Below, in pieces: positions 3,615-6,302 of a stretch of 64,000 nucleotides of DNA. The notes under the pieces were generated by a model. The model saw only the letters and a list, made by a program, of their open reading frames with translations, did no database searches and was not told where the DNA came from. Every line of letters begins with the position of its first letter. Position 1 is the stretch's first letter. The position numbers and the translations under genes were made by a program. Origin of the DNA: Escherichia coli (GTDB lineage Bacteria; Pseudomonadota; Gammaproteobacteria; Enterobacterales; Enterobacteriaceae); the NCBI RefSeq assembly GCF_050920415.1, contig NZ_CP169309.1; one strand, given 5' to 3'.

Positions 3615-3649
3615 AAAACGGGAGGAGAAGGAGCCTCCTGTTTTATTTT
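3615..3649. terminator. Intrinsic terminator downstream of envZ (hairpin with flanking A and T runs, likely bidirectional)
   Basis: AAAACGGGAGG (3615-3625) pairs with CCTCCTGTTTT (3634-3644) with one G-U wobble; loop 8 nt; T-run 3641-3649. Confidence 0.75.
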
Positions 3650-3775
3650 GTGCACTCAGTATCTACTGAATGAATACGGTTTCAGACATCGGCACCATAC
3701 GAAGTAAAGTGTACTGTAAGCTGATTGCAGGCTAGCGTATCCTGATTAGTAAAGGCACACTAAAGGAATAGCTTG

Positions 3776-5059
3776 ATGCAACTTACCAACGAAGAACAAG
3801 CACAGATTGCTCGTATAAAAGAAAAAATCCCACGCATTGCCGCACTGGATCCTGAATGTAAGTTATTCGGTTCTGAAGGTTGGAAATATCAATGGCCGAA
3901 GCCTGCCAGCGAGGCGGAAATAGCTTCCTGGGAGAAAAAACATAGCGTCACTTTGCCACGGGAATATCGAATTTTTCTTCGCTATATCGCTAATGGCGGT
4001 CCGGCACATGCCTACGGTCTTGAATCTTTAGGCGGTACAGATATTTATGGCGATATAACAAAAGAAAGCCCTGTACCGCTTTATATGACGCAGCAGGATG
4101 TTGATGTGTTGAATGCTGGCCGTACAGAAGATGATGAAGAATATAGTTTTTTTGACGGCGCATTGACCATTCTCACCCTGGGATGTACTTATGATATTTG
4201 CCTGGTGGTGACGGGGCAGTATCGCGGAAGGTTAATGCTGACTGATGGTGATGAAGATTATCCGTTTGATTTTATATATGATAAAAATTTCCTCAACTGG
4301 TATGAACGCTGGCTGGACGATTTTATTGCTGGCATGAGTATGAAGGGTTTCGATAGAAGTTTGCCAGGAACGCAAATTCAACTGCGTGAGTGGTTTTTAA
4401 CTGAGAAAATCCCGGATTTACGTAGATCCATTTTATTCTCGCTATGCCGTTTTCCACAGATAGAACCCGAAACTTTTGCCCTTTGGGAACATGTTTGCCG
4501 CACAGAGAATGATAAAGAATTGTGTGAAGAGGCATTCACAAGATTACGCCAAAAAAAAGGTTCTTGTGCTGCAGATATTTTTCGACTCTATTTTACAATG
4601 CCAGGTGAATTACGTGATATTGCTATTAAAGATCTCCGTTTTGCCTGTAGAGATAGTGTGGTGAATATTGAGGATTATATTCATTCACTGTTAATAATAA
4701 TGCCTGAACTTGACGATGACACTCTATCCTCAGCTGTCTTTGCTATACGAGAAACAGAGTATAATAAATATGATACTTTTCTGCCGCTTCTCGAACGTAT
4801 CACTGATGACCGTCAGCAAACATTATTGTGGGCGATGAGTAAGGCGCCTGATTTCAATGAAAGCCGAGGATTCGTTGAGTTGGTATTACCGCTTTTTGCA
4901 TCATCAAAGATGGAGAATGTAAGGAAGGCTATTTTGTTGCTCATTGAAGTTAAAGATAATCGTATTCCACCATTGGTTGATGAAGCTGCAACTCGTTTCC
5001 CTGAACTGACCATTTTACGAGAAAACTACTATCTCAGGACGTGGGGACATAAGCCATAA
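3776..5059 (+). CDS. Accessory protein: N-terminal SUKH-1/SMI1-KNR4-like domain plus about 230-residue helical-repeat C-terminal region (putative immunity-type protein)
   Basis: ATG 3776 with AAGGA 8 nt upstream (track start 3773 is TTG). Motif WEKKHSVTLPREYRIFLRYIANGG and later DGALTILTLGCTYDICLVVTG...FDFIYDKNFLNWYERWLDDF resemble the SMI1/KNR4 pattern. AT-rich with rare codons; absent at this position in K-12. Confidence 0.8.
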   Translation: MQLTNEEQAQIARIKEKIPRIAALDPECKLFGSEGWKYQWPKPASEAEIASWEKKHSVTLPREYRIFLRYIANGGPAHAYGLESLGGTDIYGDITKESPVPLYMTQQDVDVLNAGRTEDDEEYSFFDGALTILTLGCTYDICLVVTGQYRGRLMLTDGDEDYPFDFIYDKNFLNWYERWLDDFIAGMSMKGFDRSLPGTQIQLREWFLTEKIPDLRRSILFSLCRFPQIEPETFALWEHVCRTENDKELCEEAFTRLRQKKGSCAADIFRLYFTMPGELRDIAIKDLRFACRDSVVNIEDYIHSLLIIMPELDDDTLSSAVFAIRETEYNKYDTFLPLLERITDDRQQTLLWAMSKAPDFNESRGFVELVLPLFASSKMENVRKAILLLIEVKDNRIPPLVDEAATRFPELTILRENYYLRTWGHKP

Positions 5060-5096
5060 ATTAATGGTTCAGAAATGATCTAACGCGGAGAAAAAT

Positions 5097-5627
5097 ATGA
5101 TCAGGGAACATATTCAGCAAGCGATAAATAATAGGTTAGCATTTGATGGCCCATTCAATGTTGTTCCTGAACCTGCAAGCACTGCGTTTGATGGCCGGAT
5201 CCCGACATTGAAAAACGGTGTCTGGCAGAAGGCCAGCCCTATGTTGCAGGCGCGTTTTGCACATTGTGGACGTTGGTTAAGCGCTACACATGGAAGCTGG
5301 CTAAGTATAAGTGACATGGAAACGCTTTGGCAGGAACACATAGAAGATACGTTTCTTGATGAAATCAAAATGAATGCTGTAGCTTCAAGTGATAATTGGG
5401 ATAACCATGCCTTGGGACTATTTCGTTCTCATCGCCTGTCACTTTTTGCCGGTAGTGATTACAGTTATGAAATGGTTTTTCTCCTTTGGCTAGATAGTAC
5501 CGTTGAGCCAGAGGTCTGGGTTTATGACTGCAATGGGGAATCACGTTATAAAGATCTTAATGATTACCTGAATGCATATATTAATGATGACGTAAGCGCC
5601 TGTGAGCGCTCCTGGCGAGTAGAATGA
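5097..5627 (+). CDS. Accessory hypothetical protein (176 aa) whose C-terminal half resembles a SUKH-type immunity fold
   Basis: ATG 5097 with GGAG 6 nt upstream; C-terminal LFAGSDYSYEMVFLLWLDSTVEPEVWVYDCNGESRYKDLNDYLNAYIND resembles the SMI1/KNR4 C-terminal pattern. Stop overlaps the next start (ATGA). Confidence 0.6.
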   Translation: MIREHIQQAINNRLAFDGPFNVVPEPASTAFDGRIPTLKNGVWQKASPMLQARFAHCGRWLSATHGSWLSISDMETLWQEHIEDTFLDEIKMNAVASSDNWDNHALGLFRSHRLSLFAGSDYSYEMVFLLWLDSTVEPEVWVYDCNGESRYKDLNDYLNAYINDDVSACERSWRVE

Positions 5628-6250
5628 ATAGCCCCCCTTGCCCCTTTGATCCACAAACCGCACATTACCTCGGTACAGTGCAAATCCACTACAGCCCAAC
5701 CACCTTCAACGCTGCCGTTAAGCATTATACCTGTTACATTAAAAAGCGTTTTAAAGGGTTTAAATGGGGAATTGGAACCGCTGGCTTATTGGCTATATTG
5801 CCCATGATCCCACAATGGTTGAAACCTTCTCATGACTTTAAACTCAACGCAATCAGTACGTTAATTCTTCTATTAATGTTGCCACTCCTCTTATCAATGT
5901 TCCTGTTAATCAGCAGAAGAATTAACGATTTTAAGTCAAAAACAAAGCAAGTTACTTTTACGAAACCCGTGCGTTATGCGTTTTATTTCGAGGGGATTGT
6001 TTTTTATGAATCTCATCAGCAGGGCATACTTCGCTGGGAAGATTTGTATAGCATTGACTATGAAGAAGATTATTTGTGGCTTTTTCTGCATTTACCGAAG
6101 AGTTTTCCCAGAGAAGCGACGAAAGCGTTTTGCGATATTTTCATTCCCGCCAGCGCGATAAAAGCGCAGCCTGAACTGGATACGTTTTTTCGTGAAACAC
6201 GCCACTCGCTGGATTATCTGTTTGTCCCGTTTAATTCTGACAGAAAATAA
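5624..6250 (+). CDS. Accessory membrane protein, YcxB-like architecture (two adjacent TM helices then a soluble C-terminal domain)
   Basis: ATG 5624 overlaps the upstream stop. Hydrophobic segments WGIGTAGLLAILPMIPQWL and AISTLILLLMLPLLLSMFLLI, followed by FYFEGIVFYESHQQGILRWEDLYSIDYEEDYLWLFLHLPK. Confidence 0.6.
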   Translation: MNSPPCPFDPQTAHYLGTVQIHYSPTTFNAAVKHYTCYIKKRFKGFKWGIGTAGLLAILPMIPQWLKPSHDFKLNAISTLILLLMLPLLLSMFLLISRRINDFKSKTKQVTFTKPVRYAFYFEGIVFYESHQQGILRWEDLYSIDYEEDYLWLFLHLPKSFPREATKAFCDIFIPASAIKAQPELDTFFRETRHSLDYLFVPFNSDRK

Positions 6251-6283
6251 AAAATCCCCCGTATCTGGTGAAACGGGGGATTT
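6245..6283 (-). terminator. Intrinsic terminator of pckA
   Basis: Perfect stem AAATCCCCCGT (6252-6262) / ACGGGGGATTT (6273-6283); on the pckA strand the hairpin is followed by TTTTTTATTTT. Confidence 0.8.
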
Positions 6284-6302
6284 CGTCGCTTAACTTATCG
6301 GA

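Follow-up and report, generated by a model that had tools for sequence, protein, structure and literature searches.

We analysed a window of 64,000 nucleotides from Escherichia coli (contig NZ_CP169309.1 of assembly GCF_050920415.1), in which a gene at positions 3776 to 5059 encodes a protein that joins a SUKH-1 (SMI1/KNR4) domain to a set of HEAT-like helical repeats. The window opens with a 12-kb segment of Escherichia chromosome that carries, in this order, greB, ompR, envZ, three unnamed open reading frames (ORFs) on the plus strand, pckA on the minus strand, yhgE, hslO and hslR, and the same arrangement is annotated in E. coli N96. The gene under study, ORF1, is the first of the three unnamed frames. 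Its identical coding sequence in N96 is WP_001177604.1, named 'SMI1/KNR4 family protein' by RefSeq/PGAP, and a Shine-Dalgarno-like motif, AAGGA, lies 8 nucleotides 5' of the ATG. The coding sequence and the parts of its product are as follows.

3776..5059, plus strand: coding sequence of the SUKH-HEAT protein (ORF1), 427 amino acids plus stop; ATG at 3776, stop codon at 5057-5059.
3776..3901, plus strand: N-terminal extension, residues 1-42; long helix (residues 5-24) with conserved R13, I14 and K17, plus Y38; specific to the SUKH subfamily of ORF1.
3902..4360, plus strand: SUKH-1 (SMI1/KNR4) alpha/beta domain, residues 43-195; variable acidic loop at residues 85-127 and, as terminal helix where the repeats join on, the invariant FLxWYERWLD (172-184).
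4361..5056, plus strand: seven HEAT-like helix-turn-helix repeats forming an alpha-solenoid, residues 196-427; the fastest-evolving part, with a mean pairwise identity of 0.30.

With a pI of 4.85 and a net charge of about -20, the product of ORF1 is acidic, and it carries neither a signal peptide nor a transmembrane segment; judged from its sequence, it is a soluble, cytoplasmic protein. An earlier interpretation made from the nucleotide letters and translated frames, here called the sequence-only reading, had noticed a SMI1/KNR4 pattern in the N-terminal half and amphipathic repeats reminiscent of HEAT/ARM proteins in the following 230 or so residues. The peptide strings that it quoted are all present in the translation. 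Pfam supports the N-terminal assignment with matches to SMI1_KNR4 (PF09346, residues 43-152, E 2.7e-6, 28.4 bits) and SUKH_6 (PF14568, residues 46-169, E 3.4e-5), and gives no match of any kind in the C-terminal ~230 residues, with none to HEAT even at E<=10.

We modelled ORF1 with AlphaFold2, using an alignment of homologues, and obtained a predicted local distance difference test score (pLDDT) of 90.0 and a predicted template-modelling score (pTM) of 0.82. In the model, the helix at residues 5-24 precedes an alpha/beta domain of helices and a beta-sheet (residues 46-184), and residues 200-423 fold into 14 helices arranged as 7 pairs, which start at residues 200, 231, 265, 299, 332, 366 and 397 and are spaced 31-35 residues apart. 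The pLDDT exceeds 90 over most of the helical-repeat region. A Foldseek search of the PDB returned the Knr4 core and Bacillus subtilis YobK (2prv) for the N-terminal half, and the top matches, to the C-terminal half, were designed armadillo proteins, importin-alpha and the beta subunits of AP-1, AP-2 and COPI. The matches of the N-terminal half have a probability of 1.0 but E-values of just 1e-3 to 2e-2, and the template-modelling (TM) score normalised to the target is 0.56 for YobK and approximately 0.5 for the Knr4 core (entries with codes beginning 6qb). In B. subtilis, YobK neutralises YobL. A profile of the C-terminal half of the family matches the consensus HEAT-like protein alphaRep at E 8.7e-25, MTH187 at 6e-3 and YibA at 0.05, mainly over the last three repeats, and a search with the full-length family profile found similarity to HEAT-like repeat proteins over roughly the same three. 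Structure prediction and profile comparison of the two halves therefore confirm, at a level well above chance, both parts of the sequence-only reading, a SUKH fold and an ordered helical solenoid.

Sequence conservation is unevenly distributed over the protein. The mean pairwise identity is 0.52-0.56 in the SUKH core, 0.27 in the acidic loop and 0.30 in the HEAT domain, and the invariant residues (G147, G151, R152, F166 and FLxWYERWLD 172-181) are concentrated where the SUKH domain ends and at the junction. The high pTM of the model, together with the invariant junction residues, argues that the SUKH and HEAT-like domains form one rigid unit.

The fusion of the two domains is a widespread, fixed architecture rather than a local accident of the window. 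A database search returned 24 homologues, most of them 420-450 amino acids long and aligned over their full length, from sources that include Superficieibacter, Klebsiella aerogenes, Saccharibacillus, Capnocytophaga and Flavobacterium; some carry precomputed HEAT_2 matches. When the homologues were scanned separately with Pfam, SMI1_KNR4 was detected in 21 of the 24 at E<=1e-3 (best 1.1e-11) and HEAT_2 (PF13646) in 2 at E<=1e-3, a number that rises to 8 at E<=0.1 (best 4.7e-9). Foldseek against AFDB50 gave 264 matches at E<=1e-3. Whole-length TM scores of 0.7-0.8 were obtained to proteins of 400-540 amino acids labelled 'SMI1/KNR4' or 'HEAT repeat' from Paenibacillus, Aneurinibacillus, Providencia, Proteus, Vibrio, Snodgrassella, Actinomadura, Kitasatospora, Clostridium, Chitinophaga, Myroides, Deinococcus, Sorangium, Gimesia and a cyanobacterium. 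The whole-length agreement of ORF1 with these independently built models from many phyla, together with the pTM of 0.82, points to a fixed two-domain unit.

Two further searches extend this picture. When the C-terminal profile was run against 1.84 billion cluster representatives, it was matched over its whole length, in one continuous segment starting at residue 200-225, by dozens of proteins 420-480 amino acids long; the remaining matches were to giant multi-HEAT proteins of generic type. Scanning 100,044 species genomes for the invariant WYERWLD identified 323 relatives, and one ORF spans both domains (positions ~7-415 of the profile hidden Markov model) in 74 of the best 80 loci. The genome scan and the scan of viral contigs described below relied on the exact heptapeptide, which leaves divergent members unsampled; genes neighbouring the scanned loci were greedy longest-ORF calls, and the gene tables of PLSDB are incomplete. 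Altogether, the family occurs in hundreds of species from at least eight phyla. Truncated or fragmentary copies are also found in Serratia and Xenorhabdus. Parts of this were already known: RefSeq gives the gene the name SMI1/KNR4, several homologues go under the name of HEAT-repeat proteins, and models of the family are in AFDB. We found no description of the SUKH and HEAT architecture, or of WP_001177604, in the literature.

ORF1 belongs to a small low-GC islet between envZ and pckA, which comprises the following additional features.

3623-3650: envZ terminator, left border of the islet.
3651..6302, no strand assigned: low-GC islet of ~2.65 kb, 42% GC, in place of ~45 nucleotides of the K-12 envZ-pck spacer.
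5097..5627, plus strand: neighbour gene 2 (ORF2), 176 amino acids; putative orphan gene of Rhs-immunity type, model weakly SUKH-like.
5624..6250, plus strand: neighbour gene 3 (ORF3), 208 amino acids; hydrophobic segments at residues ~48-62 and 75-96.
~6250-6285: hairpin with a T run after it, identified by eye, beside the pckA stop; right border of the islet.

The stretch 3651-6300 has a GC content of 42.0%, compared with 51.6% for the window, and 4001-6000 (41.5%, against 48-55% elsewhere) is the sole marked low-GC stretch of the window. In K-12, the stop codons of envZ and pck are 75 nucleotides apart; when the window is aligned with K-12, the envZ terminator and the end of pckA are common to both, and ~2.65 kb replaces ~45 nucleotides. 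The three genes are co-oriented, with a gap of 37 nucleotides between ORF1 and ORF2 and an overlap of 4 nucleotides between ORF2 and ORF3. Among the ORFs between envZ and pckA we saw no gene for an integrase, transposase or recombinase, and none for a toxin, nuclease, nucleoside triphosphatase or other effector. No flanking repeats were noticed in the boundary alignment, which was not accompanied by a dedicated repeat search.

The islet is rare. By megablast, 18 of 5426 complete E. coli genomes carry it, always at the envZ-pckA site and at 98.9-100% identity, and these genomes differ in host and country of origin; one further genome, E. coli A30, holds only a longer version of ORF3. E. albertii and another Escherichia-like assembly have the same islet in the same position, and for this reason it may be older than the split between E. 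coli and E. albertii and have been lost from most E. coli since, rather than being a recent import. In E. albertii NBRC 107761 (locus L019, 8001-9287) the islet at the envZ-pckA site is 92% identical to that of the window, and AFDB has an entry of 211 amino acids from its split SUKH-HEAT gene. A second SUKH-HEAT paralogue, 41% identical, lies between yoaA and yoaB in 2 of the 5426 genomes, R32_14_1F and 2020CK-00188 (loci L008-L010, 10001-11275). Both also carry the envZ-pckA islet, which suggests one unusual lineage that keeps or collects such genes.

For the neighbour ORF2, no match was obtained in Pfam, NCBIfam, PADLOC or PHROG; what Pfam returned for ORF2 and ORF3 was only noise. Approximately 30 relatives of ORF2, at 48-85% identity, were found in Pectobacterium, Dickeya, Brenneria, Lonsdalea, Corticimicrobacter and Caulobacter. 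The relative in Pectobacterium parmentieri (56% identical) begins 20 nucleotides after the gene of a 1423-amino-acid PAAR-Rhs protein (locus L014, 3710-8525), within a Hcp-VgrG-DcrB-Rhs cluster of a type VI secretion system (T6SS). As the position directly after PAAR-Rhs is the canonical slot of Rhs immunity genes, the ORF2 family is probably an unannotated family of Rhs immunity proteins, of which the window holds an orphan member; the Caulobacter relative is solitary. The AlphaFold2 model of ORF2 (pLDDT 90.5) has meaningful PDB matches only to the Salmonella protein 4iqn, of unknown function, and to the Knr4 core (E 0.03-0.4, TM 0.41-0.50), which is a weak hint of a SUKH-like fold. The gene that follows the Superficieibacter homologue of ORF1 was considered as a counterpart of ORF2 and proved unrelated on comparison. 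ORF3 relatives are confined to Escherichia, Salmonella and related Enterobacteriaceae, and the only lead for this protein is a weak PADLOC match to PycTM (E 0.0036). PADLOC 2.0 gave no match at all for ORF1 and ORF2, these two had no meaningful PHROG match, and across the three ORFs NCBIfam, PADLOC and PHROGs yielded nothing else of use.

We examined the gene neighbourhoods of the family in ~90 loci: the window, ~10 contexts with precomputed annotation from Enterobacteria, Firmicutes and Bacteroidetes, and 80 species loci from the genome scan. The enterobacterial homologues are placed between conserved genes of housekeeping type or at their edge: those of K. aerogenes, where the gene is solitary, and of Superficieibacter, where co-oriented genes of unknown function follow, have dkgA-like and other conserved genes beside them. 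A Pfam search of 112 unrelated co-oriented neighbours gave 3 SUKH proteins, 2 DUF4304 proteins and generic enzymes and regulators among the top 20 families, a tally that could conceal rare toxin domains. In Capnocytophaga and Saccharibacillus, the homologue is part of long co-oriented arrays of small unknown genes that include Imm-NTF2 (in the Capnocytophaga array), DUF2695, a leucine-rich repeat protein and DUF7638/DUF7639, and these look like heterogeneous polyimmunity arrays. Both in Saccharibacillus (Firmicutes) and in Capnocytophaga (Bacteroidetes), the SUKH-HEAT gene has a DUF7638/DUF7639 gene just upstream, and the two are 28% identical over 306 residues (E 2e-46; L011, 9026-9961; L012, 8492-9511 / L050, 6478-7497); the other loci that we examined showed no such gene.

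A truncated copy on plasmid pAM01 of Serratia marcescens (L100, 7001-7627) encodes 208 amino acids, is 54% identical to residues 1-185 and ends after WYERWLDD. It adjoins an IstB-like fragment and a group II intron, and its surroundings hold fragments of a CdiA pretoxin (DUF637), a type-17 polymorphic toxin with Imm31 and a deaminase cassette. Together they form an orphan-cassette region of contact-dependent inhibition (CDI), with CdiA-CT, Imm31 and deaminase elements; the company is suggestive, but the region is scrambled.

We propose, with roughly even confidence, that ORF1 is an orphan immunity-type, toxin-binding protein in a three-gene islet that lacks toxins. This interpretation is based on the SUKH-1 domain, the rarity and low GC content of the islet, its polyimmunity-type geometry and the position of the ORF2 relative after PAAR-Rhs. 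Further support comes from the Capnocytophaga array, the 3 SUKH proteins among 112 co-oriented neighbours, the occurrence of tandem or multiple paralogues and the pAM01 copy in a CDI region, as well as from the net charge of -20 and the contrast between the conserved core and the variable loop and HEAT domain. The islet matches the geometry of polyimmunity loci; an immunity identity of its genes is suggested by the domain in the case of ORF1 and by the position of relatives in the case of ORF2, and none is assigned to ORF3.

According to this proposal, ORF1 would bind the C-terminal toxin domain of a polymorphic toxin that a competitor delivers by an Rhs/T6SS-type or CDI-type route, and would block it stoichiometrically, as other SUKH immunity proteins do. 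The target domain would probably be basic and nuclease-like, in that the strongly negative charge of ORF1 seems suited to basic toxin domains that act on nucleic acids. We hypothesize that the conserved SUKH core serves as a scaffold and that the target specificity comes from the acidic loop at 85-127, which varies, and from the fast-evolving HEAT surface, with the SUKH-1 domain rigidly coupled through the invariant WYERWLD helix to the seven-repeat solenoid.

A number of observations weigh against an immunity function. Linkage to a toxin is the defining contextual feature of SUKH immunity proteins; it was looked for in this family and not found, as none of the ~90 loci has a recognisable toxin gene adjoining the SUKH-HEAT gene. 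The only links to toxins are indirect, namely the ORF2 relatives that follow an Rhs toxin and the truncated pAM01 copy. Large upstream ORFs in Paenibacillus, Chitinophaga and Lewinellaceae were considered as toxins and turned out to be pilus/sortase B proteins, proteins with tails of the type IX secretion system or unidentified proteins, none recognisably a toxin. Clustering of the neighbours gave no conserved partner either, the recurrence of any neighbour family being at most 9 of 80 loci. Very many Paenibacillus species carry a member of the family, and this breadth makes the family look like a stable gene and less like an immunity cassette with fast turnover; its architecture is constant and not of the mix-and-match kind. 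The copies of ORF1 in E. coli are ~99% identical, with no sign of diversification, and in E. albertii the SUKH-HEAT copy is split into ORFs of 211 and 179 amino acids. Lastly, we looked for a promoter-like site between the envZ terminator and the start codon of ORF1 and did not find one.

Much of this evidence would fit a stand-alone adaptor or scaffold with an endogenous partner, similar to the SUKH adaptors documented in eukaryotes (PMC3113570), with the immunity-type neighbour ORF2 present by coincidental co-transfer. The missing toxin adjacency, the fixed architecture with its invariant domain junction across phyla, the breadth in Paenibacillus and the housekeeping-type neighbourhoods all agree with such a role. 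A relative in Listeria that has only the SUKH domain also bears on it: this gene follows an ORF of 483 amino acids at a distance of 1 nucleotide, as in a toxin-immunity pair, but the ORF encodes a GH1 phospho-beta-glucosidase and the pairing was discarded. An adaptor dedicated to a cellular process would however be expected to have a conserved operon partner, and none was found; it would also not readily account for the extremely patchy distribution in E. coli (18 of 5426 genomes) in a low-GC islet, for ORF2 and the immunity-like arrays of Capnocytophaga, or for the existence of pseudogenised and truncated copies. We regard the adaptor as possible, though rather unlikely. A further reading, which we consider still less likely, is that SUKH-HEAT proteins are not immunity proteins of the cognate type and form a distinct class of stand-alone cytoplasmic 'guards' or broad-spectrum sponges, in which the composite surface of SUKH domain and solenoid recognises a conserved feature of many incoming effectors, or an endogenous hub protein. 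It is suggested by the combination of hundreds of species in at least eight phyla, the same rigid layout and the lack of any toxin neighbour among those found.

A role in defence against phages or other mobile elements, for instance by binding an invading protein as a sensor or decoy, is improbable. The accessory low-GC islet and the generic binding character of both SUKH and HEAT modules are compatible with it, as are the weak PycTM match of ORF3 and one Paenibacillus homologue whose preceding gene encodes a protein of very weak NACHT-type similarity (E 1.5e-4, which falls far short of the cutoff). ORF1 and ORF2 themselves have no PADLOC match and no meaningful PHROG match, and the islet lacks effector genes such as one for a nuclease or nucleoside triphosphatase. 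No relatives bearing the family motif were found in 2.9 million viral contigs, and in the phage collection four 'Listeria phage' records contain the SUKH-only relative alone, as unannotated fragments; an association with phages was discarded on these grounds. Least probable of all, we think, is that ORF1 is a decaying remnant without current function in E. coli. The split copy at the same site in E. albertii, the fragments in Serratia and Xenorhabdus and the lack of a detected promoter-like site are what one would expect of a decaying gene, but the frame in E. coli is intact and full-length at ~99% identity across 18 genomes from varied hosts and countries, it is preceded by a Shine-Dalgarno-like motif, its product is modelled with confidence, and full-length conservation is seen in 74 of 80 species loci.

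Our preferred interpretation of ORF1 as an orphan immunity protein can be compared with several known systems. Single-domain SUKH-1 immunity proteins, such as YobK (2prv) and the Salmonella partners, share with the N-terminal half of ORF1 the Pfam family and the fold, and they are likewise cytoplasmic and acidic. They consist of ~150 amino acids and are encoded directly after their toxin, whereas ORF1 has an N-terminal helix extension and a HEAT domain of 230 residues, and no adjoining toxin. In Salmonella pathogenicity island 6 (SPI-6), PAAR-Rhs nucleases of the HNH and WHH types have SMI1_KNR4 proteins as their predicted immunity partners (PMC10469887). Orphan SUKH proteins of Bacteroidales have been shown experimentally to bind and neutralise a T6SS effector (PMC12247911). 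Similar in organisation are the dual-SUKH 'I2' proteins of the Bacteroidales rAID arrays (acquired interbacterial defence with an associated recombinase), which, like ORF1, combine a SUKH domain with a second binding domain and are encoded away from toxins in co-oriented arrays (PMC12247911). Protection by I2 proteins was demonstrated experimentally, and their second domain is another SUKH domain in place of HEAT repeats; in addition, rAID arrays have a tyrosine recombinase and conserved intergenic motifs, whereas no recombinase gene was seen among the three genes of the islet.

HEAT repeats (Imm-HEAT) have been listed as a class of immunity proteins, and Imm-SUKH domains are described in fusions with further immunity domains as well as with TPR or ankyrin repeats (Zhang et al., 2012; PMC3482391). 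Polyimmunity loci were described in the same study as tandem, co-oriented and closely spaced immunity genes uninterrupted by toxin genes. The islet shares with them the absence of toxins, the co-orientation and the tight spacing. It consists of just three genes, and the constant SUKH-HEAT architecture across phyla differs from the variable mix-and-match fusions of polyimmunity proteins; we found no SUKH-HEAT fusion named in that study (PMC3482391). These precedents bear on a claim of the sequence-only reading, that a large extra domain suggests a function beyond simple toxin neutralisation. Because the Imm-HEAT class and polyimmunity fusions have been described, this does not follow from the architecture, and the neighbour ORF2, from a probable Rhs-immunity family, weakens it further; it is not refuted either, as no homologue that we examined adjoins a toxin.

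The alpha-solenoids alphaRep, MTH187 (1te4) and YibA (1oyz) have repeats of ~31-34 residues, as does the C-terminal half of ORF1. They are pure repeat proteins without a SUKH domain, and the sequence of ORF1 is too divergent to match Pfam HEAT_2. The core of yeast Knr4/Smi1 (6qbr and others) has the SUKH fold in common with ORF1 (Foldseek probability 1.0, TM ~0.5 to the target); as a eukaryotic hub protein with disordered arms it belongs to a different biological context, and the 'glucan synthesis' labels on some bacterial homologues are annotation carry-over.

If the immunity interpretation is correct, the islet represents a compact case of enteric bacteria that acquire toxin-less protection against T6SS, Rhs and CDI attack, and the SUKH-HEAT proteins make up a large family of two-domain inhibitors that is still unexplored. 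We speculate that cooperation between the SUKH cleft and the HEAT solenoid could explain how SUKH proteins cover many toxin types. The practical gain lies mainly in annotation and does not overturn current understanding; we propose the labels 'SUKH-1 / HEAT-repeat protein, putative orphan immunity' for ORF1 and member of an unannotated Rhs-immunity family for ORF2.

A few minor observations concern the neighbour families and unusual family members. In the Pectobacterium Rhs protein, the C-terminal ~130 residues after a cleavage-type motif, DPFGL, contain the stretch GHTPDVGWGG, an HxxD-like motif (L014, 7382-7981). This part had no match in a Pfam search and is an unclassified toxin domain that the ORF2 family presumably neutralises. 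The longer version of ORF3 consists of 346 amino acids, with an extra N-terminus of 140 residues, and stands alone at the envZ-pckA site in E. coli A30 and Escherichia sp. E4742 (L002, 4566-5606). A metagenome-assembled genome of Pseudohongiella (L079, 4970-9419) contains a pair of full-length SUKH-HEAT paralogues on one strand, with 44% identity to each other and 1.5 kb between them; the gene in the interval matches a model of the lipid hydroxylase OlsE below its cutoff. A family member of 689 amino acids, with ~250 extra C-terminal residues (L016, 6719-10070; L017), starts 29 nucleotides after a gene for a 417-amino-acid protein of the PDDEXK_4 nuclease superfamily in two independent metagenome contigs, and the two genes could be a nuclease/inhibitor pair.

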